Shown here one piece after another: positions 2,874 to 61,404 of a stretch of DNA of 64,000 bases. Origin of the DNA: an uncultured Nitrospiraceae bacterium (GTDB taxonomy: Bacteria > Nitrospirota > Thermodesulfovibrionia > Thermodesulfovibrionales > SM23-35); NCBI GenBank assembly GCA_963718855.1, contig CAVRAA010000002.1, positions 50,225 through 114,224 on the forward strand, given 5' to 3'. The notes beneath the pieces were generated by a model. That model was not told where the DNA came from. It saw nothing but the letters and a program-made list of their open reading frames with translations, and ran no database searches. Numbering within the stretch: position 1 is the first letter of the stretch; each line of letters starts with the position of its first letter. The position numbers were made by a program, and so were the translations under genes.

Positions 2874-3263
2874 ATGAAGCAGAAGTGGCACGTCCTTTAT
2901 TATGAGTCGGCGAATGGTGTCTGCCCGGTTCAGGAATTCATAGATACTCGTAAAGAGCGGGATCAGGCAAAGATATTGAGTTGGGTGAGCCTTCTGGAGG
3001 AACGAGGGCCTAACCTGCCAAGGCCCTATGCAGACGTATTGATAGATGGGATTCATGAACTGAGGCTGAAACTAACGGGAGAGCAGTTTCGCATACTTTA
3101 CTTCTTCTGCTATAGAGAATTTATCGTTCTCAGCCATATTTTTGCAAAACGGACGGATGTAGTGCCTGCATCTGAGATCAAAAGGGCACAGAAATGCCGG
3201 TACGAGTTTATGTCCCGGTTTGATGAAAAGAAAATCAAGGAGGTTTTTCATGAGAAGCTTTAG
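2874..3263 (+). CDS. type II TA toxin, RelE/HigB (Gp49-like) family
   Basis: PVQEFI...LEERGPNLPRPY...GIHELR...FRILYFF pattern; toxin-first order. Confidence 0.85.
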   Translation: MKQKWHVLYYESANGVCPVQEFIDTRKERDQAKILSWVSLLEERGPNLPRPYADVLIDGIHELRLKLTGEQFRILYFFCYREFIVLSHIFAKRTDVVPASEIKRAQKCRYEFMSRFDEKKIKEVFHEKL

Positions 3264-3555
3264 ACAGCATTTAAAAGAAAAGCTTAAGGATGAACGGTTC
3301 AGACAGCTCTATGAGGAAGAAAAACAACTTGCCGAGCTCTCACTTAAAATTCTCGACTTCAGAGAGCATCTTGGCCTCTCTCAGACAGAAGTCGCAAGAA
3401 AAGCTAACGTGACTCAGCAGCAACTGTCAAAAATAGAAAACGGTGTAAATTGTAACATAGCTACTTTCTTGAAGGTATGCAATGCCCTCGGCATAAAGTT
3501 TGATATAGAGACTCCCAGATTGTCTCATTTGGGTCGAAGGACAGCGAGGGCATAG
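3250..3555 (+). CDS. XRE-family HTH antitoxin (HigA-like)
   Basis: GLSQTEVARKANVTQQQLSKIENG HTH; AAGGAGG RBS before ATG 3250; overlaps toxin. Confidence 0.85.
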   Translation: MRSFRQHLKEKLKDERFRQLYEEEKQLAELSLKILDFREHLGLSQTEVARKANVTQQQLSKIENGVNCNIATFLKVCNALGIKFDIETPRLSHLGRRTARA

Positions 3556-32638: not shown

Positions 32639-32889
32639 TTAAGAAAGGAGTAACTTTTCCTGTCTGAGACCCAGAGAAGCTATTATTTCAAAATCACTGT
32701 CTACATGCAAAACAACAGCTTTATCAGAAGCTGCTGCAGCGATAAAAAGATCTGTCGTCGATACGGTTTTCCCTTTTCTGTCCAGCGCGTATCCCCATTG
32801 TGCCGCCTTTTCAACGACCTCATCTTTCATCGGAATTTGCGGCAGGGACAGTATGGTTTCCTTCAGGGTTTTAAACAGCCTGTCATCCT
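32639..32889 (-). pseudogene. 5'-truncated PIN/VapC toxin remnant
   Basis: C-terminal PIN motifs TTDLFIAAAA...LHVDSDF; the frame runs back only to the stop codon of the CysRS-like gene; N-terminal half absent. Confidence 0.65.
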
Positions 32890-34106
32890 TAAAAAATCAC
32901 CTTGAGAACCCCGTCAATTTCCCTGAGGGTCTTTATGATCCCTGCGGCCTCAGCAGGCTTCAAATCATCCGGCTTTATCTCCGCTATAGCGCTGCATATA
33001 CCGTCGAAGGCTTTTTTTACATTGAGATCATCGTCCAGATTTTCGCCAAATGCCTTCTCGATCTTTTCACCAAAGGAACTTCCCATCCCCGATTTTCCGG
33101 CTGACTTTCTGTTGATTTTTTTTACGCATCGTTTAAGGGTTCTCAGTTTATTTACGGTCAATCGCATCAGCGGGTCCGAATAGTTCAGCTTTTCCCGGTA
33201 ATGGCCGTAGATGAGGAAAAAACGTATTTCCGACAGGGTATACCCAAGCTCGCGAAGATTGTCAACGTACACAATATTCCCCCTGCTCTTTGACATCTTC
33301 TGGCCGTTCATGTGGAGGTGTTCGCAATGGAGCCAGTACCGTGCCATCGGGTACGGCCTCACTGATTCGATGATCGCCAGGGTATAATCGTGATGCCGGT
33401 AGAGGTTGTCGATGCCGCCGCAGTAAATCGAAAGGGTTTCATGAAAATGGCTGCTGATCATGCTCGGGTCCTGCACATTCCACGATGGCCTCCCCCTGCC
33501 GATCCGTGTATCCCAGTAATGCGCGTCTCCCGTCCGGTATCCGTGCCAGAGGATGAAATCACCAAGATTCCACTGCATTCCCGGATAGGTATCCTTATGG
33601 AACCTTTTCGTTCTGGAAGGCCACCTCGACATATCAAGGCCGTAGAGTTTTCCGAACCCCGGGAACTTGAGTGGGTCGAAATAGACATTCCCGTTGTGCC
33701 AATAGGCGATCTTTAATGTGAGGAGACGCTCTATGATTTTTACAGCCTCGTTGACGCACTCCGAGGCCTTCGGAAGGTAGGCGGGAATATTCATCTCCAG
33801 GGCCTTCATCTCGCTGATAAATGCCCTGATATTTTTTTCCGTCAGACGCTTGACGGTAGTCCTCTGCTTTTTGGCTTCCTGAATGGACTTGTCTTCTATA
33901 TCGGTCAGGTTCATGCCCCTCTGTACCGGATAGCCGGCGTAGATGAGATACCGTACGAGAATATCTTCAAACAGGAAGGTCCTGAAATTGCCGATATGCG
34001 CCTTCTGGTAGACCGAAGGGCCGCACGTAAAAACAGTGACTCCCTTTTTTTTCACCGGACGGAATGTCTCGAACCTTTTTCCGAGGGTATTAAATAGTCT
34101 CAGCAT
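32889..34106 (-). CDS. divergent, C-terminally short cysteinyl-tRNA synthetase paralog (class I)
   Basis: MLRLFNTL, TCGPSVY, HIGN, TDIEDK, DFILW, GRPSW, KMSKS, HYR; ~405 aa. Confidence 0.85.
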   Translation of the reverse strand: MLRLFNTLGKRFETFRPVKKKGVTVFTCGPSVYQKAHIGNFRTFLFEDILVRYLIYAGYPVQRGMNLTDIEDKSIQEAKKQRTTVKRLTEKNIRAFISEMKALEMNIPAYLPKASECVNEAVKIIERLLTLKIAYWHNGNVYFDPLKFPGFGKLYGLDMSRWPSRTKRFHKDTYPGMQWNLGDFILWHGYRTGDAHYWDTRIGRGRPSWNVQDPSMISSHFHETLSIYCGGIDNLYRHHDYTLAIIESVRPYPMARYWLHCEHLHMNGQKMSKSRGNIVYVDNLRELGYTLSEIRFFLIYGHYREKLNYSDPLMRLTVNKLRTLKRCVKKINRKSAGKSGMGSSFGEKIEKAFGENLDDDLNVKKAFDGICSAIAEIKPDDLKPAEAAGIIKTLREIDGVLKVIF

Positions 34107-34232
34107 CGCTCTTTCTCCTGTTCTGCTATCATATAAGTTTATCACAGCAGCATGGTATAAGATTGTTTTTAAAGGTATTTCTGGTAAAATTACAGAAGAG
34201 TTCAGGGTGATAAACCGACGAAGGTGGTTTAG

Positions 34233-34685
34233 GTGCGAGACGATACTATCCTGTTGCGATGCGGCAATTGCGGAGTGGTGAACAGACTGCCTGAGAGCAG
34301 ACTGCCGGAGCACCCGAAATGCGGAAAATGCAGAAACGTTCTGGAGTTTGCCAGAATGCCGCTCGATGTAACATCATCGAATTTCGACCGGGAGGTCCTC
34401 GGATGGCCCGGGTCAGTGCTGGTTATGTTCTGGGCGCCATGGTGCGGACATTGCCGGACGATCATGCCGGTCATCGATGATATGGCGCACAGAAGGGCAG
34501 GGCGATTGAAAGTATGCAGGGTGAATGTCGATAACGAATCTGCCATCTCCGGGCGTTTTCAGATTCGGGCAACTCCAACGTTTTTTCTCTACAGGAATGG
34601 AAACAAAATCAGCGACATCGCCGGCGCCATGCCGGGATCACAGCTTGAGGCATGGATTGACGCTTCGCTGTTAGGTGCGTGTTAA
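34233..34685 (+). CDS. trxC: thioredoxin 2 with N-terminal zinc finger
   Basis: CGNCGVVNR...CGKC zinc finger; WAPWCGHC active site. Confidence 0.85.
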   Translation: MRDDTILLRCGNCGVVNRLPESRLPEHPKCGKCRNVLEFARMPLDVTSSNFDREVLGWPGSVLVMFWAPWCGHCRTIMPVIDDMAHRRAGRLKVCRVNVDNESAISGRFQIRATPTFFLYRNGNKISDIAGAMPGSQLEAWIDASLLGAC

Positions 34686-34812: not shown

Positions 34813-35884
34813 CTATCGAGATAGCCTTCGATTAAAAAATCTTCTCCGACCCGGCGGATTTTTGTGTCTTTGAGCCTGTAGGCATCTTCGAGTTTTCTGA
34901 AGGTTTTTCCTCCTACTGAAGGAAAGGAATCCCTGCCCCCGATGATCTTTGGGAGCGATGAAGAACATTACCTTGTCGACGATGCCGTCTTCGAGGGCGT
35001 GGGCATTGAGCGACGAACCGCCTTCGATAAGCACCGATGTAATCTCCATTTTGCCGAGGGTCTCCATCAGCCATCCGAGATCGAGTTTGTCACTATAATG
35101 GATAATCCTGATCCCCGCACTTTTCGAGTTGCTCGCTTTTCTCATCGCGTTCTTTCGTGACGATGAGTGTCGGAGGAGGCGTCTGGAGGATTTTCGCATG
35201 GAGCGGAATCTCAAGGTTCGGATCGATTACGATCCTGAGCGGACTCTTTCCTTTTTTCATCCTGACCGTCAGTTGAGGATCATCTGCTTTTACCGTCCCG
35301 ATGGCGGTCATGATGGCATCAACATGGCTCCGGAGCGTATGGACTTTCTTCCTTGCCTGTTCCCCTGTTATCCATTTTGACTGGCCTTCCGGGGTCGCAA
35401 TCTTGCCGTCAAGGGTCATGGCGACCTTGAGCGTTACAAAAGGTTTTTTGGTCGTGATGTATTTCGTGTAGGCTTCATTCAGCTTCTTCGCCTCGTTTTC
35501 AAGAATCCCCGATGTTACCTCTATTCCTGCGTCCTGCAGTTCCGCGATGCCTTTTCCCGAAACTTTCGGGTTCGGGTCGGTCATCCCGATAACGACTCTC
35601 TTAATGCCGGCGTGAATGATCGTCTTTGCGCAGGGAGGGGTCCTCTTTTCGGTATGGCAGCACGGTTCGAGATTGACATAGAGCGTCGAGCCTTTTGCCT
35701 CCTCGCCCGCTGTCGCAATTGCAAGGGCCTCGGCATGGAGGGTCCCGGGCTTTCTGTGGTAATCCTCAGACAGGATTATCCCGTTTTTTACGATCACGGC
35801 CCCGACCATCGGGTTGGGGCTTGTCATCCCCTGTGCCCGTGCGGCAAGTCTGAGCGTGCGCCTTATATACCATGCGTCGTTCAT
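34813..35884 (-). CDS. ribD: riboflavin biosynthesis deaminase/reductase, two frameshifts
   Basis: PNPMVG, HAE, LEPCCH...PPC, TLDGKIA, SKWIT, LIEGG across frames. Confidence 0.9.
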
Positions 35885-35971
35885 GGATATGTAGAATATC
35901 ATAAATTTTTTGAATAATAACGAATAAAATGAATTTGTTTATTCTCTTTCTTTTGCTATAATATCAATAAT

Positions 35972-36687: not shown

Positions 36688-37025
36688 AGTCTCTATCGCC
36701 CAGGGTTTACTTGAAATAGCTATCGATAATTGTAAAAAGCATGGGTATCAAAGCATTGATTCGATCAAAGCCAAAGTAGGGAAAGCTTCGGGTATTGTGC
36801 CCGATTCCCTCCTTTTCGCGTTTGAGGCATTAAAACAAGACACCATCGCCGGGAACGCTACCCTGATCGATAGAAGAAATTCCTGTCGGCGGTTTTTGCG
36901 ACAGCTGCAAAAAGCATTTCACAGTTGATGAGGCGTATGTTATAGCATGCCCCATCTGCGGAAGCTCATCTTTCAAGATAGAAACAGGACGTGAATTAAA
37001 TGTCGACGAGGTGGAGGTATCCTGA
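36680..37025 (+). CDS. hypA: hydrogenase nickel metallochaperone, frameshift near 36870
   Basis: MHEVSIA, VPDSLLFAF; CDSC and CPICGS, GRELNV in the shifted frame. Confidence 0.9.
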
Positions 37026-37681
37026 TGAAGGTCAAGGTTGTTACCAATATACTGGAAGCCAATGACAGGCTTGCCATTGAAAACAGGAAGATATTCGACC
37101 AGGCCGGTGTCTATGTGATGAACGTGATGAGCGGGCCGGGAGCGGGTAAAACGTCACTCCTCGAGAGTACGATCAAAGACCTTAAAGGGAAATTGAAGAT
37201 CGGAGTTATCGAAGGTGATATTGCCGGCACCGATGATGCCCAGAGGATAGAGGCCCTCGGCATCCCTGTTGTTCAGATAAATACCGGCGGCGGATGCCAT
37301 CTTGACGCGAACATGATTTATGAAGTGCTCGGCGAATTGCCGATCAAAGACCTCGACCTGCTTATCATCGAAAATGTCGGCAACCTTGTATGCCCTGCTG
37401 AATTCAAGCTGGGAGAGGACATGAAGATAACGCTCCTCAGCATCGCCGAAGGACATGATAAACCGCTTAAGTATCCCCTGATGTTTCAGGAATCGTCTGC
37501 CCTTGTGCTGAATAAAATAGACCTTCTTCCCTATACGAATACTGATATTGGCAAGATACGGAAAGACTCTTTGTCCCTGAACCCGAATCTGAAGATATTC
37601 GAAGTTTCGTGCAGGACAGGCGAGGGGATAAGCGAATGGACGAAGTGGCTGCAGGCGCTGGTAAAGTCAGAACAAAGATAG
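37025..37681 (+). CDS. hypB: hydrogenase nickel incorporation GTPase
   Basis: SGPGAGKT, EGD, CHLDA, ENVGNLVCPA, DKPLKYP, NKIDL. Confidence 0.96.
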   Translation: MKVKVVTNILEANDRLAIENRKIFDQAGVYVMNVMSGPGAGKTSLLESTIKDLKGKLKIGVIEGDIAGTDDAQRIEALGIPVVQINTGGGCHLDANMIYEVLGELPIKDLDLLIIENVGNLVCPAEFKLGEDMKITLLSIAEGHDKPLKYPLMFQESSALVLNKIDLLPYTNTDIGKIRKDSLSLNPNLKIFEVSCRTGEGISEWTKWLQALVKSEQR

Positions 37682-40084
37682 CAGTCAAAGGCATCGTCCA
37701 GGGTGTCGGCTTCAGGCCATTCGTTTATAAGTTAGCAAAATCGCTGCAGCTCTGCGGTTATGTCATCAATTCATCCAAAGGGGTGACGATCGAGATAGAA
37801 GGCGACGGCAGCGCTGAATTTATTGACAGATTGACCAAGGAAGCGCCTCCCCTGTCACAGATAATGAGTATCGACATCATTCCCTTGCCGTATCTCGGCT
37901 ACACGGATTTTCAGATTAAAGAGAGCAGGGATGAAGGCAGTTTTACCCTCGTTTCAGCAGATGTTTCGATCTGCAAGGACTGCTTCGGGGAAATGCTCGA
38001 CAACAACGACAGGAGATATCTCTATCCCTTTATCAACTGTACGAACTGCGGCCCCCGGTATACGATTACAAAATCCGTTCCCTATGACAGACCGAATACC
38101 ACAATGTCTGTCTTTCGACTCTGTCCCGATTGCAAAAAAGAATATCACGATCCTGCGGACAGGAGATTCCATGCCCAGCCGAATGCGTGCCCTGTATGCG
38201 GGCCGCAGGTTGAGTTAAAAGTTACAAGTGAAAAGTTAAAAGTTAATAAAAAAGCGGATCCGATTGCAGAAACAATCAGGCTTGTTAAAAGAGGGAAAGA
38301 TTGTTGCCATCAAGGGACTGGGCGGATTCCATATCGCGTGCGACGCTGCGAATGAGAAAGCGGTCAGGAGGTTGCGCTCCGAAAAAAGGAGGAGCAACAA
38401 GCCCTTTGCCCTTATGTCCCCGGACATTGAGACGATCAGGAAATTCTGCAGAGTGTCTGAGGAGGAAGAGGCTGTTCTCGTATCGAACAGGAGGCCGATT
38501 GTTCTGCTCGAAAAACAGCAAAACAACCTCCCCGATGCTGTCTCGCCGCATAATCCGTGCATCGGCTTTATGCTACCCTATACGCCGCTGCATTATCTGC
38601 TGTTTTATTATCCGATGATTGAAAAGAATCGCAGGCTGAAGCCTGCGGCTACATCTTCCGAGATAGAGGGTGAATTTCGACGCCCTTGTTATGACAAGCG
38701 GCAATATTGCAGAGGAACCCATTGTTATCGATAATGATGAGGCCGTGTCGAAGCTGTCGGATATTGCCGATGCGTTTCTTCTCCATAACAGGGATATTTT
38801 CATGCGGGTTGATGATTCTGTCGTGAGGGTGATGGGTAGAAAAGCAGAAACGGAGACACGGAGAGACGGCAGATAGGGAGCATACAATATCTACCGCGTC
38901 CCCGCGTCCCATCGCTTACTCTTCCATATCCTTTATTCGCCGTTCAAGGGGATATGTGCCTGATCCGATTCCGCTTCATGACGAAGGCCCTGAAGTGCTC
39001 GGGTGCGGCGCGGATATTAAGAATATATTCACCCTTACAAAAGGGAGTTTTGCGATCCCGAGCCAGCATATAGGGGACATGGAGAACTATGAGACACTGC
39101 GGTTTTTCGAAGAGAGTCTGAAAAACCTGAAAGACGTTTACCGGGTGAATCCCGTAGCGCTTGCTCACGACCTCCATCCGATGTATCTGTCGACACAGTG
39201 GGCTTTACGGCAGGAGAATATAAAAAAAGTCGGGATCCAGCATCACTATGCCCATGTCGGATCTGTCATGGCTGAAAAGGGACTGAAGGATAAGGTCATC
39301 GGCATTTCATTCGACGGAACCGGCTACGGCGCTGACGGGAATCTCTGGGGAGCAGAATTCCTGATCGCCGATATAAAGGGTTTCAGGCGGGCAGGCCATT
39401 TTTCCTACGTTCCGCTCCCCGGCGGAGAAGTTGCGGTCAAAGAGCCGTGGAGGACTGTTGTCAGTTATATCAGGAAGATTGCGGGAGATGAGACAATCCC
39501 TTATCTTGAATCAATCGGCTTTGTGAAAAAGTACGGCGCTGACAGAATCAACGATCTCCTCAGGGTTATCGACATACGCCAGTTTTCCCCCCTGGCATCG
39601 AGCGCCGGAAGACTCTTTGATGCGGTCTCTGCACTGATAGAAGTATGCGATACGAATACGTTTGAGGGCGAAGCTGCGATCGCACTCGAGGCAGTTGCCA
39701 TGCCCGGGATTACTGATGACTATCCGGTTGATATCAAATTCAAAGAAATAATGGAGATCGATTTTTCCCATACCATCCTGAGAATCCTCAGCGACAGGGA
39801 GAAAAAAGTGGAGAAAGGCGTTATCTCCGCGAAATTCCATAATACTGTTATTGCCGTCTATCCTTAGGGTTGCCGAGAAGCTTGCGGCGCTGCATCGGCT
39901 GAAGGATGCAGTTCTGTGCGGCGGCGTATTTCAAAATATGTATCTCCTGCAAAGGACGGTTGAAGGGCTTCAGTCAAAAGGCTTGACGGTTCATATCCAC
40001 GACAAAGTGCCGACGAACGACGCCGGCGTGTCCCTCGGTCAGGCCTATATTCTCAGGGAGAGGATTAAGGCGGGAATTGATTAA
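37636..40084 (+). CDS. hypF: carbamoyltransferase, several frameshifts and repeat insertions
   Basis: GIVQGVGFRPF, NCTNCGPRY, RRFHAQPNACPVCGP, KGLGGFH, MTSGN, RRSRGY, HDLHP, QHHYAH, DGTGYG, SSAGRLFD, GGVFQN, PTNDAG. Confidence 0.92.
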
Positions 40085-43393: not shown

Positions 43394-44106
43394 ATGCTTC
43401 TTGGCGTAAATATTGATCATGTGGCCACGATACGGCAGGCGCGGTTGGGCGCAGATCCCGATCCTGTCATGGCCGCTACATTGGCGATACTCGGCGGAGC
43501 AGACGGGATCACCCTCCATTTGCGGGAGGACAGACGCCACATCCAGGACCGGGATCTCAGGCTTCTGAGAGAAATTGTCCCCTGTGAGCTTAACCTTGAA
43601 ATGGCTGCAACAAAGGAGATGATCGGCATTGCGCTGAAGACGAAGCCCGATCTTGTCACCCTTGTGCCTGAAAAAAGGCAGGAGCTTACGACAGAAGGCG
43701 GGCTTGATGTTGGTTCGCAGAAAAAAACAGTGAGAGAAGCGGTCAGAAAAATCCGTGACGCGGGAATTCCCGTGAGTCTTTTTATCAATCCCGACCGGGA
43801 TGATATAGAGATATCGAAGCAGACAGGCGCGGATATGGTGGAGATACATACCGGCATGTACGCGAATGCAAAAAAGAAAAGACAGGAAGAAGAACTCGTC
43901 CGCGTTATGAAGGCGGCAGAGCATGCGCTGAAGGTCGGGATTATGGTAAATGCAGGGCACGGGCTTAATTACTCAACGTATCAGGATGCGCTTCCATTCA
44001 GGGGCTTCGGGGGCTCTATATCGGACACAGTATTATTTCACGGGCAGTACTCACTGGGATGGAAAAGGCGGTAAGAGAGATGAAAGAATTGATAAAGAAT
44101 GCTTGA
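43394..44106 (+). CDS. pdxJ: pyridoxine 5'-phosphate synthase, frameshift near 43975
   Basis: [39 protein letters not shown]; IGHSIISRA in shifted frame. Confidence 0.93.
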
Positions 44107-44118
44107 AGGAAGATTAAA

Positions 44119-44579
44119 ATGGAAAAAAATATTTTGATTCTATGCTGCGGCTATCCCTGGGCAACTGATATGGCATTTGGCTATCATGTATTGAAAGCTT
44201 TGGAGAAGATGCACTTCCCGGAAATGTAGAAATCATGGAGGTCGGGGATTCAGCCTGTATGATTCCGGCATTCGTTGAAGGTAAGGACAAACTTGGTCGT
44301 TGTTGATATTTTCAGGGTCGATTGCTAAGCCTAGTGACCGATAGTCCGTCTGAAGCAAGCGGAGGTTCCCGGTTACTGTTAACAGCAAAACAGATATTGA
44401 TAAATTTCATCTTATGGAAATGCTTGAACAAATCAAAATCAGCGGCAAATGCCCTGAGGCTATTTTTATCGGTGTTGTGCCAAAGGACTCAGAGGACAAG
44501 CGGAGAAAAATTAACGCCTGTAATAAAAAAACAAATCCCCAAGGTTATAGATTTAATCATGCAAGAGATAAACCCATAG
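44119..44579 (+). CDS. divergent hydrogenase maturation protease-like protein, multiple frameshifts
   Basis: ILILCCGYPWATDMAFG..VL..L, NVEIMEVG, KLVVVD, H....ML, IFIGVVP, LTPVIKKQIPKVIDLI; HybD/HyaD-like order of motifs. Confidence 0.6.
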
Positions 44580-44616
44580 GGCTATCTTCAGTCTGCGAAG
44601 TACGTTTTGTCAGCAT

Positions 44617-45782
44617 TTATTGAAGAGTCGGACCGGTTAGGGCATGATGGAATATAAATACTTTAATAAATTCCTTGCGGGTTACTTCTGATTTGACAAA
44701 CGTTGCTTGTTGTTGGATAACTGCCCGGGTTATGATCTCTCCATGGCAGGAAAGGTAACACTCCCCTGCCCGATTCCCCAAATCATTGAATTCAGGGCAC
44801 CGCTGCTTGAAGGACTGACTGGAGATACTGTTCAGATCGATAAGATGAGAATATTGCATACTGCCATGGACATTATGGCCGTACGACAGGAAGTTCCGGC
44901 AACGGAAACATGCAGATTATGAAACTGAAAACTCTCATTGCTCAGGATACTCGTTCTCGTGTGACAATTGTAACAGAGTTCATACTGAAAACCTTTCTGA
45001 ACCATCTACTCCGAAAAATTCTTCTTTAAAATATACTTATAAGTTGGAGCCATGTGGGCCCTCGGGCCCGAAAGGATCATCATTCCCGTGGCAATCAGTG
45101 CATTTGATAATGCTTGATACCGTTAATGGATACGATAAGACTTGGCACATTGACATTTCTGCCCGAAGCCAAGGATTGGATGATATGAAGGGCGTGAAAC
45201 ATCAAACATATTCCCCTTGTTTGATTGATTCCCAGGGAGATTTCCTATTTGCATGACACTTGAAACAAAGTTCATATTCGTCAATGATCTGTCTCTACCT
45301 GTTCCCCCTGAGCATTGTCTCCTTTGATGCCTAATGTTTTGTTGATTTTTAATACATAGTGATGATGGTGCAATCCATATAAGTTACTTCCATGGGCATT
45401 GATTCGTCTACCTGAGGATAGGTTTTTCGAACCCTCACTGCACATATGCGTATTATTTTTGATAGGAGTCAATATGGTTTTTCAAATTCTACTCTGCAGG
45501 TCTATCTAATTCACATCCTTTCCCAAATCGCCAGTCTGTTTTACTTTTGTATTTGCATACTATTACCATGACACCTGAAGCAAAAAGAATTTCTGTCCTG
45601 GGCAGCATAGGAGTATTAGGTTTCCCATGGCCTTTATGGCAACTTCCACAGCCTTTTGGAATTTTAGTTCCATCTCTATGTGCCCTTTTAGATGCCTGTG
45701 AGAAGACCAATGGCGGTATCAAGACAATACTTAATGATATCATCATTAGCGCTATGCATATACATGTAATTTTCTTGTTCAA
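44617..45782 (-). CDS. multiheme c-type cytochrome (~8 hemes), multiple frameshifts
   Basis: signal peptide; clean CGSCH, CFRCH, CFKCH, CTDCH, CYNCH; two indel-damaged motifs; terminal CYLSCH. Confidence 0.75.
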
Positions 45783-45810
45783 AGTAGTAGAGTTACCCCA
45801 TTTTAAAGGT

Positions 45811-46541
45811 TCAGTATAATCGTGTCTCCATATAGACAGGAAAATTATCATCATGGCACACTAAGCATACATCATCATAGGTTTCTTTTCGCCAAAAGGG
45901 TGGCGGAGGAACACCATTGACCGTTATTCCTCTTCCGCCGTGAGGATCATGGCAGGAGGTACACTGGACACCGTATCCGCCCTGCGTAGGATAAAGTTTC
46001 ACATAGGGGTCATCATCGGCCAAATAAGCTTCATGGGAAAATCAAGTGAGGGATCATTTCTCATGCTCGACCAAATTAGCATCAAAGATAATCGATATAG
46101 GGTGGCCACCCCCCAGATCTGTTCCCAAATATCCGTGATCGTCTACAGATAATATGTCAGGAAATGTTTCAATAGTTGCTGTTACTAATGCCCCGAGAGC
46201 GATCGTCCCATCGTGACAGCCCAGACAAAGTTTTGAATAACCATCAATGGGCGGAGCACTGCCCGGTGCATAGGGCTGCAGCGTATCGCTTTCATATGCA
46301 GTGTATGTGACTCCATTAGAGACTTGATGATTCCATAAAGGATAATCAGGCGATGCATTATGAGGGGTATGACAGAAAATACAAATCTGGCTTTCCTCGG
46401 ATAATACACCAAGTCATAGCGAAACGGGTTAGAAGCAGATAAATTATGCCTTGTGCTTGCAACTCCACCGTAAGCATTAAAACATAAAATAAAAAAACTT
46501 AAACAATATAATCCGATAATTAGTGGTTTTAAAATTTTCAA
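45811..46541 (-). CDS. OmcE-like tetraheme cytochrome c (candidate nanowire subunit), frameshifted
   Basis: rebuilt across frames: signal, STRHNLS, QICIFCHTPHNA, PLWN, SKLCLGCHDG, LGTDLGGGHPI, VQCTSCHDPH, PFWR, VCLVCH. Confidence 0.8.
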
Positions 46542-46656
46542 TAGTTTTTTTATACATAATTATAAATTACAAATTACAGGGACAAAAAAGCAAGTTTATT
46601 AGAAAGCACATAGCTTCATACCCAAATCCCTATACTAGAGTTATGACCTGCCTGAT

Positions 46657-46743
46657 TCATTGTGCGAGAACCAGAGAAGGAGTTCGAAGCAATCATTAAG
46701 CATCTGGAAAAGACTGGATTGCTTCGCTGCTGCTCGCAATGAC
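46657..46743. repeat. CGTC-type REP-like palindrome
   Basis: tcattg..gcgag...cgaagcaatc / gattgcttcg...ctcgcaatga. Confidence 0.6.
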
Positions 46744-46905
46744 AAATTTCCGTAAAGGGATTAGGTCTTTACTGAAGACTGTCTATATTAACTCAGGGTT
46801 TGTCATTATAGCGCTTGCCCGGTGGATCCATGATTCGACACGCTCATCATCGCATTTTTTTGTATCACATTCCTGTAGCCCTGAGTTTCTCGAAGGATTT
46901 TGCTA

Positions 46906-47964
46906 TTATGGCCTCTTAAGATATTGAAATACCTGAATCCTATTATTATAAGAATCAGCAATATAAATCCGGTCGTTACTGTCAATAAATATTCCCGCGG
47001 GGATAAAGAAGTCACCATTTCCGCTTCCGGAACTGCCGAACCATAGCAGTAATTTGCCATTCTTGTCGAATATCTGAACATTATCAAAATGTGCGTCAGT
47101 GATATATATATTGCCTTCTGAATCAACTGCCACGCCTTTGGGTTTAGAAAAATTTCCTGATCCGTCTCCAAGTTTACCGAACGTAGATATAAATTCGCCA
47201 TCTCTGTTGAAAATCTGGACTCTGAAATTCATTGAATCAAGAATATAAAGAAGATTGTCCTTTCCGATAAAGATATTTGTTGGGTAATTAAATTCTCCCT
47301 TAGCTGAACCATGTGTGCCGAATCTGAACAGGTACAGACCTGTAGATTGGGAAAATACAAACACCTGATGCCGATGAGTGTCAACTACATACATACGGTC
47401 TTCATCAATTGCTATGCCAGTTGGCCTTATAAATCCTTCAGGTGGAACCATGCTCCGCAGATATTTTCCCTCCTTATCAAATACAAAAACATTTTTCAGC
47501 ACAGAGTCCGACAGGAATATCTGACCATTTGCATGTATGGTAATTCCTATAGGAGACATGAGAGCCTCTCCGTTAATCTCATATATCCGGGAATATTTTT
47601 TCCTTTTTACATCAAAGATATGAATGCAAGCAAGTCCCGGATCCGTCACATAAATAATTTCAGAATCAGCGACTATACCATAAGGCCTCAACATTTGTTC
47701 GCCATGTTCTTCTCTGCCCAACACTGTATCTACTGCTTTCTTAAACCAGGATTTTTGAATGCCTAAATCATCTGGGCCCCTGATGGTTTTGATTAGTTGA
47801 ATTCTCGGATCATGTGGAGGCCACGATAGAATACCGTCGCCCGTCAGTGCATCGGAATCTTTGTTAAGGTAAGTATTTTTTACGCAGGCCGCAGACGGAA
47901 ATATAAGGCATAAAAAAATTATAAGTGGAAAAAAGTTACAAATCCTAATCGCGCGAGAAATCAT
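46906..47964 (-). CDS. NHL-repeat six-bladed beta-propeller lipoprotein
   Basis: SAAC lipobox, WPP, repeated F..P.GIA.D...IY..D..N.R.Q.F units. Confidence 0.9.
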   Translation of the reverse strand: MISRAIRICNFFPLIIFLCLIFPSAACVKNTYLNKDSDALTGDGILSWPPHDPRIQLIKTIRGPDDLGIQKSWFKKAVDTVLGREEHGEQMLRPYGIVADSEIIYVTDPGLACIHIFDVKRKKYSRIYEINGEALMSPIGITIHANGQIFLSDSVLKNVFVFDKEGKYLRSMVPPEGFIRPTGIAIDEDRMYVVDTHRHQVFVFSQSTGLYLFRFGTHGSAKGEFNYPTNIFIGKDNLLYILDSMNFRVQIFNRDGEFISTFGKLGDGSGNFSKPKGVAVDSEGNIYITDAHFDNVQIFDKNGKLLLWFGSSGSGNGDFFIPAGIFIDSNDRIYIADSYNNRIQVFQYLKRP

Positions 47965-49795
47965 ATTATTCTGCTGACTTTAAGCTCGATTCTTCTATCG
48001 AGTCTTTCCCTCTCTCACCAGTATCAAATTTTCTAATTCTGCCATCAAATATCACGAATACCCTGCCCTTCTGGTAACGGGTCTCGAGTTCAAAACTGCT
48101 CTCTTTCGTGTCCGAGTACCCCTCGAGTTCTTGCCATATTTCACGCCACAATGCAGAGAGTAATAAGGTTCTTTTAATGGGATAGTTCATTCTGCCTTCA
48201 TAGAAGTATCTTGATCTCTCCCTTGCTTTGGTTTCTCCCGTGTCGTATCCTGATTTCAGATTAACGGTTATGCCTTTTCTGAAAAAATACGCCAAATCTG
48301 CTCTCAACGTGAGGAGAGTTGTATCTTCTTCGAAGCGCTCGGTATTAGACAAAAAACCCGAGTCAAAAGAATCAAAGACACCGGTCCTCAAAGGTCGCTT
48401 TCCTTCAGTATTCGACTTATAATATTGACCTTCGACATTCCAGAATGATCTTCCGAAGGTTCTTCCGGGCAACTTTCCCCTGATTCCGAGTCTCATAATA
48501 TTCCCTGTGGTTGTGGACTCATATTTTAATAGGTTGCTTTCATCAAAAGAATCGTCACTCCCCTTTTCAAGATATTGATAATTTTCTTCAGACCTGAAGA
48601 ACACATAATTCAGATAAAGCGTGCCAATTCTGATTTTTGAGGTGGTCATGTTCAATTCAAAGCGATGTTCATTAGAATCGCCTCTTCTCTCATCTTCTTG
48701 TGCAAAGAATCTGTAATATGAAGAGAAATTGAACTGCTTCCAAAGCCATCCATAACTGAGACTGGAGCCCAATCCCTCAGTATGCCAGCTTTCATCATCT
48801 ACTTCATTGCTGCCGTATCTAAGGGATAGGGAGGCACTCAACCTATCCATCAATCGGTAGGACCATGAACCCCAGAGAGATTGACGAGTTGCTTTGATAT
48901 TTTTGTCTTCGATGTCCAGTTCCTTTGATCCCGTAAATGTTGTGTCCGATTTCAGGTAGTCGTAGCCGTAAAAATGGGTAAAGCGTTTTCCATAGCCGAA
49001 ATCAAGATTACTTGATAACCCTGAATATTTTGATTCATCACTTTTTACATAACTTAAATAATTGGAGAGAGAAATGCCATTTTTTAGAGTGGAAAAGGTA
49101 TTGAGACGGTAATCCTGTACAGAAAAATTGCCATCGGGACGTGAATAATCAGCTATATCAACAAAGCCCTGGTATCTCGTTCGCAATAAAGCCCAGAAAC
49201 CTCGCACATCAAGGGTGTACCTGTCGAGTGTAATTCTGTCCACTTCATCTCTAACACGCAATATGTCGTATTCGTAATGGTAGTACTCGAGTCGTATTGC
49301 AGGAAGGTTCCTCTTTTTGACTCTCATGCGAAATCCGTACAACTCAGAATTGGTATCAACGGTCTCACCCGTCCAGTCGACAGTATAATAGATCTTTCTT
49401 GCATAGACATCGAAAGAGACCGGTCGATATGGAAGGAATGTTGTCAATAAGTCATAACCCATGTCGCTTGACTCATTGCCGTAGCCACCCTTAGCTCTGA
49501 ATATTGTATCTTCATAATGGATAGTTGCATTAAAAATTGCAAGTCTTGGGTGGTAAATATATCCCTCGGCACCAAGTCTATAGTACTGTTGAAAGGTCCG
49601 GGTTTCGGCGTCCCTGTCTCCGGAGTCAAAACTTGATTTGACGTTATAGCTTCTAAAAGTTAACTCGATGAGACCATGAAATTGAAATCGATGAGGATAT
49701 TCGACTCTCATCTGAGCATCGGCGGCGCCAATAAAAGATATTGCCGCAGAAAAAGCAATCGCTAAAATTAATACGTTGACCCCTTTTCTCTTCAC
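47961..49795 (-). CDS. putative outer-membrane beta-barrel (porin-like) protein
   Basis: GGAGG then GTG 49795; signal peptide; Tyr/Phe/Ser-rich alternating strands over ~600 aa, GYIYHPRL motif; last codons frameshifted (IELKVSRII*). Confidence 0.75.
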
Positions 49796-49949
49796 GAAGA
49801 CGAGATCCTCCAAAACTTTTCACAATGCCCACATTTTATTATAATATATGCACTATTAAAATATTTTAAATTACGCAATGAATGAAAATGCTCTTTTCCA
49901 CGAGGCGAAAAAATGAAGGATATATGAATAGTTTCTTTGGGTACTTACA

Positions 49950-50992
49950 TTACTCTTTTAAATATTGAAAGACTTGAACTCTTTTGTTATAGGTATCAGA
50001 AACATATATTTTGTCATCCTTATCAATAAACATTCCTGAAGGCAGGGCAAACTCTCCCGCTTTTCTGCCCGCCAGCCCAACCCAGAGCAGTAATTTCCCC
50101 TGTTCATTAAATATCTGGAAATTATTGAACGCTGTATCAACAACATAGACATTTCCGTCTGAGTCTACACCTATCCCTGCCGGTCTTGAGAAATACCCGG
50201 AAGCATCACCCAATTTCCCGAATTTTTTTATAAAATTTCCGTCGGGGGTCAAAAATTTGAACCCTGAAATTAAAGGAATCAACAACGTACAACCGGCCGT
50301 TCCTGTCGAGAGCCAAATAACTGGGATAGTTAAACTCCCCATCTTCAGCGCCTCTTTTGCCGATAGTGAAAAGGTTTCGGCCATCATTATCAATACTTTT
50401 ACAACATGGTCTTGCGAATCAGCGACATAAAGCCGTTCTCTTTGCTCATCGAAGACCATTCCAGCCGGCCTTTTAAATTCAGAGGGACTGCCGATTGTCA
50501 TGAGGACGCTGTCTGAATTAGCATCGATGGCAAAGACCTTTCTTAGTCTGGCGTCGGATACATAAAGAACGCCCTTCTTATTGTTTATCGCAAGTCCAAT
50601 CGGACCACCAAGTCGGCCCGTACCCAAAAATCTCAATACATTTTTCTTGCGGTCGAAGACAAATACGATACGAATTTCAGACTCGGCAACGTAGATATTT
50701 CCGGATGCGTCGACAACTACTCCATTTGGTCTTCTTAATGCCTCAACTCTTTCTTTTCCGATAAGAAATTCCATAACCTGACCAGGCTTTCCAAAGTCAT
50801 ATTTATTTGACCATGTTTCAATAAACTTTATGCGTGCGGGAGCTGGAGGGGGTGGCCAAACGGAAGTTGTCTCTGATGACGCAGCAGGGGCAGAAGACAC
50901 TGATGGGTACCTGCGCAACTCGCCATCATTGTCGAAAAAAACAGAATTACGAATAAAAAAACAAAAGCAACAAGAGATATCGATCTGTGCAT
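49950..50992 (-). CDS. second NHL-repeat lipoprotein, frameshifted
   Basis: MASCAG lipobox, VWPPPP..ARI, NHL repeats, ends RVQVFQYL like 46906..47964. Confidence 0.85.
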
Positions 50993-51059: not shown

Positions 51060-52031
51060 TCAATAAAATTTATGACATCTCGCGCAAATATTTCCTTGCG
51101 GAAAAAGTTTTGCAAAATCCGAACTATGAGGATTGTGGCATGTAACGCAATTCATATCTCTGCCAGGATTATCAGGGTCAGGCACCTCCAAAGTTTTTGT
51201 GGGGGCAAAAGGATCGGTAATCTTCTTGGTTCCCGGGAATGCAGGATCTTTAACACCTTGAAGCGGATGGATTTTTTTCTTTCCCAGGGATCGATACAAT
51301 GTGACGCCCGTCGGATTTATTCGCGTGACAGCTTGTACAGAGTTCGAAGAGAGGCTGTACAAGCATCGCCTTATCGTTGCTCACATGCGGAGTATGACAT
51401 AAGGTGCAGCCGCCGGGCATCGAGACTACTGCATGAACAGTCTTCTTTGTGAACTTTGCCTTCTCATGGCATGCATAGCATGCATCCGGCATCTCGTTGC
51501 TGAGGAGTTTACTGCGCATTTGATGCATGCGGAGCATGGCAGCCGGTGCACATGCCGATGGTAGCGTGGCCATATTTCCCCTTGAATCTGTTTTCATCAT
51601 GGCAATTATAACAGAGGCCGGGCACATCACCCAAGAGAATCTTGCTGTAATTTGACTGATGGGGATCATGGCATCCCGTACACATTCCGCTGGTTATGGG
51701 GGTATGCACTGACTTGCCCTTAAATTTTGATTCGTCATGGCAGGTGTAACAGAGTCCGGGCATCGGTTGTGTCAGTTTGATGCTTCCTTTCTGGCCGGGA
51801 TGTGTCTTCCCCTCAACCGCCACATGGCAGGAGGAACAACCCAAGTGCGATAGCGGCATGAACACTCTTTGCGCGCTCCTTCATTTTCACGTGACAAGTC
51901 AGACATTGGCTGTCATCAGCGGAAAACGCCGGGTCTGCGAGAACAGAAAAAACGATGAAAGTCGTTGAGAGCAAGATGGTAAACAGTCTGAGTTTGGCAG
52001 TAAGCATCAATTCGTTTCGTCTATCCTTCAT
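51060..52031 (-). CDS. multiheme cytochrome c (11 CXXCH, doubled-CXXCH type), frameshifted
   Basis: signal; CLTCH, CSSCH, CYTCH, CTGCH, CYNCH, CTGCH, CYACH, CTLCH, CTSCH, CVTCH, CARCH. Confidence 0.85.
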
Positions 52032-52315: not shown

Positions 52316-53214
52316 TTATTTCCCTTTTGCCGGCAGATCGTGTACATCGATGTGACACTGCAGGCAGTTCGGGAACTTCTTGAGCACGACTTCACCGTGC
52401 GGCTGGCCGTGGCATTCCTGACACTGAGGAACATATTTGTGTTTGGAATGATGGCATTTCACGCAGGCTACCTGACCGTGCTTGCTTACGGTTGACTTGA
52501 TTTTCTGCAATACCTGCGTATGGCAGCCACCGCAGACGTCGTTCTTCACTGTTTCCCCGTAACTAATCATGAGGGGCTTATGCACAGGATGGCACACCAG
52601 GCAGTCTTTTACCGTCTGGTCCGCTGAATGTGGTTTGTGGCATTCCATGCATGATGGTATGTAGCCGTGCTTGTCGTGATGGCACGAACCGCACGCAACC
52701 AGTGTGTGTTTGCTCGGGTTCTGCTGGAGTTCTGTGCTGACTGTCGCATGACAGTCGCCGCAGGCCTTTGCGAGCTCAGCGCTTGCCGTTATCTGTTTCT
52801 TCGGCGCATGGGGCTCAGCGTGGCACTGGGCACAGACGGGAAATTTCTGTCCGTGGAACAGGCCGTGACATTCCTGGCACTTCGGCATGATCTGGTCCCA
52901 GTTTTGTTTCACGGGGCTGTAGGCATGATACTTCGTATGGCATTTTACGCACTCGATCTGATGCTTGCCCCCCTCGTTTTTAATCAGGTTATATACGGAG
53001 GAGTGACAGCGTCCGCACTCATTGGGTGACATCGGAGTGATCTCTCCTGAGTAGAGGGAAGATGTCTTCACTTCTGCTTTCGTTCTTGCGCCGGTGCTGC
53101 CTGCTGTGTGGTCTGGGCTGTGACCGTTTCCGTTATTGCGCCTGTGGCAAATGCAGCGACGATCAGCAGTAGGAACAGGCCGAGCACAAAGGTCTTTCTT
53201 TTTCTGAAATCCAT
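52316..53214 (-). CDS. dodecaheme cytochrome c, frameshift after signal peptide
   Basis: MDFRKRKTFVLGLFLLLIVAAFA signal; 12 CXXCH in three 4-heme modules. Confidence 0.9.
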
Positions 53215-54062
53215 TATTTACCAACCTCCTTTCCTAAACTGTGTGCACTTAAGTGACACATATTACATTGCGGGAACTGTTTCAGCATGCCTGCGGGATG
53301 AGGCGCGCCGTGGCATGACTCACATGCGGGCACATATTTATGTTTTTCTTTGTGGCAGAAGACACATGCCAGAGCAGAGTGTTTTGTGTTCGATGACGTA
53401 AGACTGCCGGAGACGTCTGCATGACAGGCCGCGCATTGGCTGTTCGGCATATCAGGAGCGATAGAAATCGTAAGGGGCTGGTGGGCCGGATGGCAGACCA
53501 TGCAGTCCTTGTCCGTCTGCTCAGCAGAATGAGGCTGGTGGCACTTCATACACGGGGGAACATCCCTGTGTGCCTTGTGGCAAGTGGTACAGAACAGCTT
53601 CGAATGGAGCGTCGGGGTGTCCTTCAGTTCCTGTCCCTGCTTTGGATGGCAGGAAAGGCACGGGGCTGTGAGATTGACTGCCAGCTTCATATCGAGCGGC
53701 GCGTGCGGGTCGGTATGGCATGTGTTGCATCCGCCGATCTCGTAGTGCGGCTTGCCCGCGTGACACTCGCTGCAGAGCGGAATAATCTTGTCCTTGCTCA
53801 CCATCGGGGGATGTCCTTTATGGCAGCCCATGCAGGAAATGGCGGTCTTATGCTTGCTCCCCTTGCTCTCCACCGTGCCTGCCACCGCGGTATGACATTT
53901 GCCGCAGTCGCTGTTTGCAAGCTGTGCCTGGTCCGCAAAGCCCTCCTGCACGATGAAATGGTTCGGTAATAAGACAGATACGAAAAACCCTGTTACAGCG
54001 AGGAAAAGCAATGAACACATGATCTTCCCCTTTTTGTTCTTCTCCATGAGGCGCTTACTCAT
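53214..54062 (-). CDS. dodecaheme cytochrome c (paralog of the downstream gene)
   Basis: N-terminal hydrophobic segment; 12 CXXCH with the same spacing; TAATG coupling to the next gene. Confidence 0.92.
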   Translation of the reverse strand: MSKRLMEKNKKGKIMCSLLFLAVTGFFVSVLLPNHFIVQEGFADQAQLANSDCGKCHTAVAGTVESKGSKHKTAISCMGCHKGHPPMVSKDKIIPLCSECHAGKPHYEIGGCNTCHTDPHAPLDMKLAVNLTAPCLSCHPKQGQELKDTPTLHSKLFCTTCHKAHRDVPPCMKCHQPHSAEQTDKDCMVCHPAHQPLTISIAPDMPNSQCAACHADVSGSLTSSNTKHSALACVFCHKEKHKYVPACESCHGAPHPAGMLKQFPQCNMCHLSAHSLGKEVGK

Positions 54063-59489: not shown

Positions 59490-61404
59490 TCAGTATCCCT
59501 GTCTCCGTAAAAACTCCAGTCGCTGCTTCACTTTTTCATTTGCCGGATCAATCATCTGCGCCTTTGAGAATGCCCTTTTTGCTTCCTGGTAGTTCTGCTT
59601 TGCGAGGAAGGCGTCGCCTATGGTGATCGAATAGTTCACGTTCCAGCCGTAGTCCTGCGCCTTGAGTGCCGCCTCAACCGCCACTTCATTCCACAGCCAC
59701 TCCTTCGGCATAGAGAACCGGTCTATGAAGGGTTTATTTGCAGGGCTCTCCTGCAGGAAGATGAGAGAGATGTTGTCCATATAGATGAGATGCCAGGCAG
59801 GGTCATTGAGCAGCGCGGGAATCAGCGGTACGAGCCTGCCGCGTAAAGTTGTCCACCGAATACGTGATGATAAAATCCACGTTATATGCCTTAAGGATCG
59901 CCTTCCATTCAGGTAATTGTTCTACGGGCTGCCGGGACGCCCCCAGCACCCTCACTTCCTGGAAGAAGACCTCGCCTATTAATCCCCTGCCGTCGATGAA
60001 GACCTTGTAGTCGGGATAGAGCTCCCACATGAGATATCCGCCCCAGACATACGGATTAAACATATTCCCGGGTATCCTGTTCTCTTTCAGAAACCGCGCA
60101 GCCCCTTCAGGGTATTTATTCATCCGGATGCCGCTCTTAAAGAGATCTGCATTGTTGATGACGATGATGAGGGCTATCGAAAGGATAATCGCAGACGGCA
60201 TCTCGATTTTTTTCGCCATCGACTGTAAGTAGCTCCGGTGGCTTCAGCTTCCTGAGGATTTCCGCTCCGTATCGGGCGATCATGAGTGCGGCGACCGGGC
60301 AGAAGAACGGGATAAAACGGGAAGACGAAAGGCTCATGACGGCAAGAACGGTCACGAGTACCCCATCAGTGAGGTCGCGTCTTTGTATGTCGATTACGAA
60401 GAGCAGGACCAAAAGGGTCAGGAGGATAAAATAGATGATGAATTGCGGTTCATAAAAACCGGACCGGACAAGGGTCACCGGGGATACCGATTCGATGATC
60501 ATGCTCTTGTAACGGCCGGTCTCGAATTCGAGGAGAAAGGGGAAAACCTTATAGCTGTTCGGATTCATAAAAGACGAGAGGACTGCGATAATACCCGCTA
60601 TGTTCAGCATCTTCAGGGAGCGGGAAGGGAGGATGCTCCCGAATCGTTTCATGAAATATTTCATATTTTCCGCAATAAGGTAACAGGCGAGAATCAGTAT
60701 CCCCAGGATAAAACCGCCATGAAGGTTCGCCCACAGGAGCATGATGAAGGGGAGGGGGAGAGGATAGAAGGTTGCAGGCCAATGACGAACGGCAATGACA
60801 GGCTGTTGTGTCTCACTCGAATCCTGGAATCCTTGATCCTTGAATCCTGTTGTGTTGCACTTGAATCCTCGAATCCTTGGATCCTATGGATCCTGTCGAT
60901 GTTGCACCCTTTGCCTTTCTAAACCCTTCCAGCAGAAAGATCAGAAGAAAAGCGAACAGAAACGAAAAAAGCTGTGGTCTTTCCCCTGTAAAGGTGCGGA
61001 ATATCATCACTACCGGGACAAGGAAAATGACGGAGGAGTAAATCCCGAACCCTTCTCTCCGTATGCCTCTGAATAGCAGGAATATGAGGAGCGTAAGCAG
61101 CGATGCCCTCAGGAAGATGATCCCCTCAAGGCCGAAAAGGTCGTATATCCGGTAGAAGATGACCTGAGCAAGCCAGTATTGTTTGAGGATGAACCCGATG
61201 CGCTTTTGATTCAGGGTTGAGAGGGTCTTTCTGCAGCGACGTATAGGCAAACGGGTCTGTCACGGGCAGTGATCCGGACTGATAAATATATTCGCCGGTC
61301 TTCAGATGCCACCAGAAATCAGGGTCCTTTATCTCGACGGAAAAAAGGCCGAAGACGAGGGTGAAGAGGAGGGCGAGGAGGATGAATTTGGAGATTCTTA
61401 ACAT
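59490..61404 (-). CDS. polytopic membrane protein, putative GT-C glycosyltransferase with C-terminal TPR, frameshifted
   Basis: DPDFWWHLKTGEYI after TM1, ERPQ, LWANLHGGF, NPN, RFIPFF, YP, N.Y.WGGYL, FIDGR; TPR tail. Confidence 0.7.

Follow-up and report, generated by a model that had tools for sequence, protein, structure and literature searches.

We analyzed a 64,000-nucleotide stretch of the genome of an uncultured Nitrospirota bacterium (contig CAVRAA010000002.1; this whole stretch is called the window hereafter), in which a gene for a tetraheme c-type cytochrome lies on the minus strand between positions 46541 and 45811, hidden by breaks in its reading frame. Judged by its sequence, this gene is a homolog of the gene encoding OmcE, the subunit of the cytochrome filaments of Geobacter sulfurreducens. 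We consider it rather probable that this OmcE-family gene is the seventh member of an eight-gene cluster for extracellular electron transfer, that its breaks come from an error-prone assembly and that it is intact in the living population.

The window encodes an OmcE-like tetraheme cytochrome

The encoded protein was reconstructed from a three-frame translation of positions 46560-45780 and from the list of open reading frames (ORFs). Once the frames were joined, they gave a protein of ~240 amino acids (aa) whose N-terminus is hydrophobic and which has four CXXCH motifs as well as four further histidines. This is the protein of ~240 aa, four CXXCH and four extra histidines that the original prediction had described from the sequence, and its motifs could all be given coordinates; the middle part of the gene was also, as had been said, missing from the ORF track, with no listed ORF of at least 30 aa lying over it.

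The N-terminal piece (frame A, positions 46405-46541, minus strand like all the following pieces) starts with a TTG at 46541 and carries a hydrophobic signal-like segment followed by RHNLS (46451-46437), which contains the N-terminal conserved histidine and aligned to TKHNLS of the orthologs. The hydrophobic stretch before GGVASTRHNLS was seen by eye, and the start codon is either this TTG or an ATG at 46557. The middle piece (frame B, 46057-46413) aligned to OmcE and contains CIFCH (46383-46369), TPHN (46368-46357), CLGCH (46227-46213) and GGHP (46110-46099); its translation in frame B also reads PLWN, CLGCHDG and LGTDLGGGHP. A short stretch between two frame breaks (46014-46073) has an ortholog-like reading in frame A, RNDPSLDFPMKLIWP, and the C-terminal piece (frame B, 45811-46035) contributes CTSCH (45963-45949), DPHG (45948-45937), CLVCH (45867-45853) and the stop codon TGA (45813-45811). 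The latter piece matched the Pfam domain Paired_CXXCH_1 (E=3.2e-11), and this generic doubled-CXXCH domain at the C-terminus was the only one that Pfam and NCBIfam found in the window protein. The C-terminal end itself is uncertain, since contigs of other populations (metagenome runs X1 and X3, introduced below) lack one base at 45825 and another at 45800.

When the window protein, with X written at the two TGA codons that interrupt it, was used as a query against the Protein Data Bank (PDB), it matched the G. sulfurreducens OmcE filament chain 7tfs_A (E=1.2e-16) and the Desulfuromonas soudanensis OmcE chain 9yuq_N (1.1e-8), the latter from the structure of an OmcE bundle (9YUQ; PMC13712944). 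A profile built from ten intact orthologs of the same family matched 7tfs_A at 3.5e-32 over chain residues 13-232 of 232, and 9yuq_N at 2.4e-21 over residues 8-217 of 218. The match to OmcE was far beyond chance both for the single broken sequence and for the ortholog profile. All four CXXCH motifs (CIFCH, CLGCH, CTSCH and CLVCH) stood in a conserved order and aligned with those of the orthologs and of OmcE, and the histidines of RHNLS, TPHN, GGHP and DPHG were present and aligned with their OmcE counterparts, an observation that concerns their presence only. The alignment with OmcE that had been proposed as a check on the prediction gave, in sum, significant similarity with all eight predicted heme-ligating histidines kept, and the OmcE motifs that had been cited for comparison (KHDLS, QICVFCHTPHNA, PLWN, CMSCHDG, LGTDLSNDHPV, CGSCH, PFLR and LCLGCH) were all found in the alignments to 7tfs_A.

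Relatives of this gene are widespread. A match was found in 22 of 41 related genomes, and in those of the same family the open frames were intact, 239-288 aa long and 55-63% identical. A pattern search made with the single broken protein returned 53 pattern matches, none of which was confirmed as a relative; the same kind of scan made with the ortholog alignment recovered at least 591 relatives among the 600 pattern matches listed, from species-representative genomes of many phyla.

Several features are shared with G. sulfurreducens OmcE (7TFS): a precursor of ~230-240 aa, the order and spacing of the four CXXCH motifs and of the four distal histidines, a histidine in a T-K/R-H-D/N-L-S motif directly after the signal peptide (putative in the window protein), and a neighborhood with two beta-propellers, a large beta-barrel-type protein and multiheme cytochromes (PMC13712944). 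The OmcE of D. soudanensis WTL, which forms bundled anti-parallel nanowires (9YUQ; mBio 2026), belongs to the same family and has the same conserved set of heme ligands. The window gene differs from its G. sulfurreducens counterpart in its host phylum, which is Nitrospirota and not Desulfuromonadia, in its variable loops, which diverge, and in being frame-broken in the assembly.

The host genome (G000; 2.72 Mb in 14 contigs, 48% GC, scored 95% complete) shares its family with three of the relatives (G006, G009 and G022) and groups with a family of Thermodesulfovibrionales/Nitrospirota metagenome-assembled genomes (MAGs), in agreement with the earlier suggestion of a non-Geobacter host: it is a Nitrospirota of Thermodesulfovibrionales type, Thermodesulfovibrionales being one of the orders in this phylum. 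Contigs that are 99-100% identical to a flanking gene, encoding an NHL-repeat protein, occur in freshwater-sediment and sediment metagenomes. In our reading, the bacterium lives in freshwater or sediment habitats, and the gene described here is its only tetraheme c-type cytochrome gene of the OmcE family.

At least three one-base frame changes interrupt the OmcE-like gene

A frameshift-aware alignment, in which two of four orthologs could be aligned, revealed that the OmcE-like gene carries at least three one-base frame changes in the assembly, leaving it without an uninterrupted frame. The first break (46405-46424, from frame A to frame B) was placed by the alignment to these two orthologs, the exact base not being fixed, and the second and third lie at about 46065-46080 and about 46012-46043, also according to ortholog alignment. 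A possible fourth shift near 46500, in an A7 run within the putative signal peptide and together with the ATG at 46557, came from only one of two ortholog alignments. The earlier description of a gene hidden by frameshifts was thus right in that the frames are broken and the gene escapes the ORF list, but not in the number of frame changes, which is three or more instead of one or two.

Frame B also contains two in-frame TGA codons (46056-54 and 46044-42), 12 nucleotides (nt) apart. From ~46068 to 46012, it is the frame of the N-terminal piece that is conserved, with RNDPSLDFPMKLIWP in the window against R-N-x-D-P-x-L...W-P in the orthologs. Because the orthologs match frame A between breaks 2 and 3, both TGA codons result from reading out of frame and are not nonsense mutations, and the ortholog alignments required a nonsense substitution at none of the breaks in this gene.

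We compared positions 43500-48500 with the Logan contigs of four metagenome runs (X1-X4, from three studies), which are 99-100% identical to the window in the neighboring NHL gene, the comparison of insertions and deletions (indels) resting on the indel rows listed. One base fewer was found at 46068 in all four runs, none of which had the version of the window, and an extra T was found behind 46012 in three of the four. When the four indels listed for the OmcE-like gene were applied to it, one open frame was obtained from 46413 to a stop codon. Confirmation of a true pseudogene by sequencing reads had been named as an outcome that would speak against the prediction; at two of the three break sites, the contigs of the four runs have indels that restore the frame, which favors the prediction instead. 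In these other populations, the OmcE-like gene appears intact at 46068 and 46012.

The OmcE-like gene is the seventh of eight consecutive genes

In two relatives (L014 and L020), eight consecutive genes encode, in this order, two 12-heme cytochromes, an 11-heme cytochrome, an NHL protein, a protein of ~620-650 aa, a second NHL protein, the OmcE-like 4-heme cytochrome and a 7-heme cytochrome; a third relative (L013) has this order only in part. The window has the identical gene order from 54062 down to 44699, all on the minus strand, with the OmcE-like gene as the seventh. The cluster begins with two intact genes for 12-CXXCH cytochromes (53214-54062 and 52316-53224), which are followed by the 11-heme cytochrome gene (51063-51995), with three one-base frame events relative to two orthologs (at 51845, about 51514-51520 and 51285). 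NHL-repeat beta-propeller gene 2 (49950-50962) has an open frame, with two to three frame events relative to orthologs: about 50390 and 50247 in three of three alignments and about 50863-50905 in two of three. NHL-repeat beta-propeller gene 1 (46906-47964) is intact, without any frame event relative to its ortholog. Both NHL proteins match Pfam NHL at ~1e-29 (1.3e-29 for gene 1).

Between the two propeller genes lies a gene for a 615-aa protein (47966-49813). It had no match in Pfam or NCBIfam, and a phmmer search against the PDB returned nothing at E<=1. Its structural model (mean pLDDT 80) has a signal helix and 28 long beta strands, and Foldseek matched this model to large outer-membrane barrels only (TM 0.24-0.43): the top matches were TonB-dependent transporters (TMq 0.24-0.35), and the best TM-score, 0.43, was to MtrB (6r2q_B, rank 43). 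The protein is hence predicted to be of the large outer-membrane barrel type, and we call it barrel-type with no named family assigned. Its last ~15 codons (47966-48050) are probably out of frame, as the C-terminus of the orthologs matches another frame, and contigs of X1 and X3 lack two bases at 48010.

Directly downstream of the OmcE-like gene stands its partner, the gene for a weakly MtrA-like 7-heme cytochrome (44699-45854). The same 13 frameshift events and three stops were found in it by alignment to three orthologs. An ortholog of this protein had a single match in the PDB, 6r2q_A (chain A of the Mtr complex, 7.4e-4), and NCBIfam matches to DmsE/MtrA-type families were far under the cut-off.

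By its gene content, this cluster fits the published minimal omcE cluster, which comprises two multiheme cytochromes, two beta-propeller lipoproteins, OmcE and a large beta-barrel (PMC13712944), with the difference that the window has four multiheme cytochrome genes and not two. Again by gene content, it can be likened to the outer-membrane cytochrome clusters of Desulfovibrio ferrophilus IS5, in which multiheme cytochromes are co-encoded and co-expressed with two NHL-repeat propellers and for which an outer-membrane electron-transfer complex was proposed (PMC5815863).

The OmcE-like protein may form filaments or end a porin-cytochrome conduit

From its sequence, the OmcE-like protein would be exported by Sec and would mature with four bis-histidine c-hemes, ligated by the four CXXCH histidines together with those of RHNLS, TPHN, GGHP and DPHG. 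The propellers would help to position it outside the cell, at the barrel protein or by way of it, and it would carry electrons away from the cell as the OmcE proteins of Geobacter and Desulfuromonas do, while the 7-heme weakly MtrA-like neighbor would probably feed or root it. Its heme ligation, export and conductivity are all inferred properties. In OmcE and OmcS, a histidine of the adjacent subunit completes one heme, resulting in head-to-tail polymerization (PMC9473688, PMC13712944), and we infer that the N-terminal histidine of RHNLS is the one donated to the neighboring subunit. By analogy, the protein could form a homopolymeric filament, to which we give nearly even chances. This is our leading reading because the gene keeps all eight histidines, has the size of OmcE and stands in a cluster that has been used as a criterion for nanowire-capable homologs (PMC13712944). 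When the gene was earlier called a nanowire homolog, the homology was well founded; the polymerization is extrapolated from homology and gene context.

An AlphaFold2 model of an intact ortholog (L003), computed without hemes, was unusable, with a mean pLDDT of 45.4 and a pTM of 0.29. One result weighs against a filament: the 80 best loci of the pattern scan, which span many phyla, showed how often the OmcE-like module is fused to its neighbor. A 7-heme homolog was found in 75 of these loci and an NHL protein in 77, and in 54 the OmcE-like and 7-heme modules were parts of one ORF of about 560-670 aa with 10-11 CXXCH motifs (for example at positions 7977-9773 of L030). They were separate adjacent genes in 22 loci, mostly of Nitrospirota. 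A porin-cytochrome conduit accounts for this frequent fusion no less well than a free filament subunit does. The gene might then be intact and its product form no filament, the tetraheme module being the end of such a conduit in a 1:1 complex with its 7-heme partner inside or at the large barrel.

We regard this conduit as an unlikely but serious alternative. It agrees with the full-length match of a fused Verrucomicrobiota protein to OmcE (7.7e-33 to 7tfs_A, over the whole OmcE length), with chain A of the Mtr complex being the only PDB match of the 7-heme ortholog and with MtrB giving the best TM-score of the barrel model; moreover, a preprint models 8-13-heme "OmcE-like" proteins of Acidobacteriota and Verrucomicrobiota as Mtr-like conduits (10.64898/2026.05.27.727921). 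The fused 10-11-heme "OmcE-like" cytochromes of Verrucomicrobiota, Acidobacteriota and others do resemble the window genes, with a homologous OmcE-like N-terminal module, a homologous 7-heme module and an NHL propeller near, but they are one polypeptide, whereas the window has two adjacent genes. In the window, the OmcE-like gene is separate and OmcE-sized and keeps the N-terminal histidine motif that serves the neighboring subunit in OmcE; the cluster corresponds to what was published for nanowire-capable homologs (PMC13712944), and the similarities to MtrA and MtrB are weak.

One genome of the same order (G030) carries one fused gene (a 704-aa open frame) and three free OmcE-like genes within 17 kb (C1:922798-939838). 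Such fused and free genes side by side suit a base-plus-filament arrangement equally well, and a base plus its subunit is a possible description of this locus.

It is also conceivable, though we find it rather doubtful, that the OmcE-like and 7-heme proteins are the halves of one unit which, where they are split, would work either as a barrel-seated 7-heme filament base or as a heteromeric alternating wire. If true, a 7-heme base would address how OmcE nanowires are rooted and fed, which is treated as an open question in the discussion of the mBio 2026 study (PMC13712944).

Assembly errors, and not gene decay, very probably broke the OmcE-like gene

Leaving function aside, the breaks in the OmcE-like gene are very probably an assembly artefact: an error-prone metagenome assembly of the long-read type would have introduced one-base indels, which cluster at a cytochrome locus that varies between strains. 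We favor an artefact over a pseudogene because the assembly is indel-ridden throughout and because, at two of the break sites, contigs of the other runs have indels that compensate for the shift.

The state of the whole assembly was estimated from two samples of conserved genes. With ORFs of a complete genome of the same family (G023) as probes and a threshold of at least 45% identity, 13 of 151 conserved genes were split over frames; in the second sample, 27 of 182 had high-scoring segment pairs (HSPs) in more than one frame, 24 of them with at least one frameshift event. A scan for ABC_tran found 2 of ~38 ABC ATPase genes split. Genome-wide, one-base frameshifts affect roughly 9-13% of conserved genes, at about one per 7-10 kb, and most are a single extra base. 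Among the split genes, at 78-90% protein identity, are orthologs of ferrochelatase, an RnfC/Nuo51-type protein, a complex I 49-kDa-type subunit, aminotransferases, a radical-SAM enzyme and a PLD-type enzyme. Dense patches also occur elsewhere, with 10 events in four adjacent genes (C7:142828-147585) and four events in 1.4 kb (C13:403063-404455), and a multiheme cytochrome gene on contig C13 (243158-244466), whose ortholog in G023 has 511 aa and matches Pfam Multi-haem_cyto, shows five one-base events in 1.3 kb. An ORF-desert scan of the host genome did not discriminate between error and decay.

The contigs of the four other metagenome runs differ from the window to very unequal degrees along the cluster: by 0-5 letters per 200-540 bases and without gaps in the NHL gene, by 3-18 letters and up to five gaps in the OmcE-like gene, and by 55-80 letters and 12-19 gaps per contig in the 7-heme region. 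The ortholog alignment had independently placed frame breaks in the 7-heme gene at 45491, 45544 and 45599, and the contigs have indels at these three positions. In the conserved part of this gene (45530-45627), six of the eight listed substitutions are synonymous third-position changes, and it is because they are mostly synonymous that we consider the underlying 7-heme allele to have evolved under purifying selection. Indels are about one-fourth as frequent as substitutions (5:18, 12:55 and 19:80), while natural decay is expected to give an indel-to-substitution ratio much below 1:4. Together, purifying selection and this excess of indels are better explained by errors in the consensus of a strain-variable locus than by natural decay. 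Outer-surface multiheme cytochromes were found to evolve fastest in Geobacter and Shewanella (preprint 10.1101/2025.11.06.686851); in our view, such fast evolution could explain a poor polishing of these loci in metagenomes.

A number of observations weigh against this explanation. Run X4 lacks the insertion at 46012, and break 1 is not directly covered by any listed indel; one X4 contig (46262-46540) has one gap and one X3 contig (45782-46497) has a fifth gap at an unlisted place, which are consistent with break 1 without fixing its position. Only three of the eight listed substitutions in the OmcE-like gene are synonymous, which makes the codon-position test uninformative there, and all 18 listed substitutions in the 7-heme gene divide into seven synonymous and eleven that are not. 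At one of the stops in the 7-heme gene (TAG at 45508), the window and the other populations differ by a substitution, and several indel sites lie outside homopolymers. The local density of breaks is also far above the genome mean, with 3-5 events in 0.73 kb in the OmcE-like gene and with 13 events and three stops in 1.06 kb in the 7-heme gene, which is denser than every other patch found. Finally, the analysis covers the assembled sequence of the host, and the breaks could be real in its strain.

If they were, the lineage would be losing its cluster for extracellular electron transfer, and the OmcE-like gene, the 7-heme gene, the 11-heme gene and one NHL gene would be really frameshifted. This is improbable in our estimation, even though breaks are 30-100 times as dense in the cluster as in the genome on average, with a maximum in the 7-heme gene, and even though a second multiheme gene (the one on C13 with five events) is also broken. 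The unequal divergence from the contigs (~2.5% in the OmcE-like gene and 8-12% in the 7-heme region, against 0-1% in the NHL gene) would fit such decay too, as would a 243-nt segment directly upstream of the gene that is found in the host genome only; and since no run has the version of the window at 46068, this version, if real, would be private to the host strain. However, if ~9-13% of conserved genes are broken, core metabolic ones included, not all these breaks can be real in a 2.7-Mb genome, and comparable patches exist in genes that do not encode cytochromes. The indel-to-substitution ratio of ~1:4 is above what natural decay would be expected to give, synonymous substitutions dominate the conserved part of the 7-heme gene, and the frame-corrected proteins keep ortholog-level identity (57-60%) together with the conserved motifs of their families.

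That the two TGA codons are instead read as selenocysteine, tryptophan or glycine, or that the shifts are programmed frameshifts, is suggested by both internal stops being TGA and 12 nt apart, but we rejected this recoding as having a negligible probability, because the sequence between the breaks agrees with the orthologs when it is read in the other frame, not in the one that contains the TGA codons, the gene uses TGA as its own stop, 86.8% of the host genome lies in long table-11 open frames, and frame breaks occur genome-wide in unrelated genes without a common motif.

Relation to known OmcE homologs and further observations in the window

OmcE homologs with such a gene cluster, some of them in Nitrospirota, have already been described, and OmcE-like proteins carrying additional hemes have been noted in various uncultured phyla (PMC13712944, mBio 2026). 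Our literature search, which left supplements aside, found no paper on OmcE in Thermodesulfovibrionales specifically: Nitrospirota homologs appeared in PMC13712944 only, and the passages of PMC12246660 that were covered did not treat OmcE in this order. Close relatives of the window gene may already appear in the alignment figure and the supplementary tables of PMC13712944. With the present gene, the organisms that may build OmcE-type wires come to include a sediment bacterium of Thermodesulfovibrionales type that has the complete conserved gene set; the addition is modest because Nitrospirota homologs are already in print. It also illustrates that fast-evolving extracellular cytochrome genes can drop out of gene calls in indel-prone long-read MAGs, so that surveys of extracellular electron transfer based on called ORFs undercount them. 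The frequent fusion of OmcE-like and 7-heme modules offers a starting point for testing how such wires are anchored.

The 243-nt segment mentioned above (46606-46848) is intergenic, between the NHL gene and the OmcE-like gene, and one X1 contig skips it (joint 46605->46849). In all four metagenomes, the summed contig depth over 46673-46839 was very high. Its core (46717-46748, ~30 nt and hairpin-like) is dispersed, with up to 11 copies in related genomes, and looks like a REP/MITE-like dispersed repeat. Rfam had no match in 46500-46950 and found one tRNA only in the whole window.

Further frameshift sites were seen in the host genome at C6:57521-60073 and C9:243182-244664. In the window, overlapping same-strand ORFs form additional candidate split pairs at 2874-3555, 32889-34546, 34813-35902, 37025-38355 and 59803-60742. 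Lastly, positions 43500-43666 showed a very high summed contig depth and many loose contig ends in all four runs, which indicates a gene segment conserved across many organisms of the four metagenomes.

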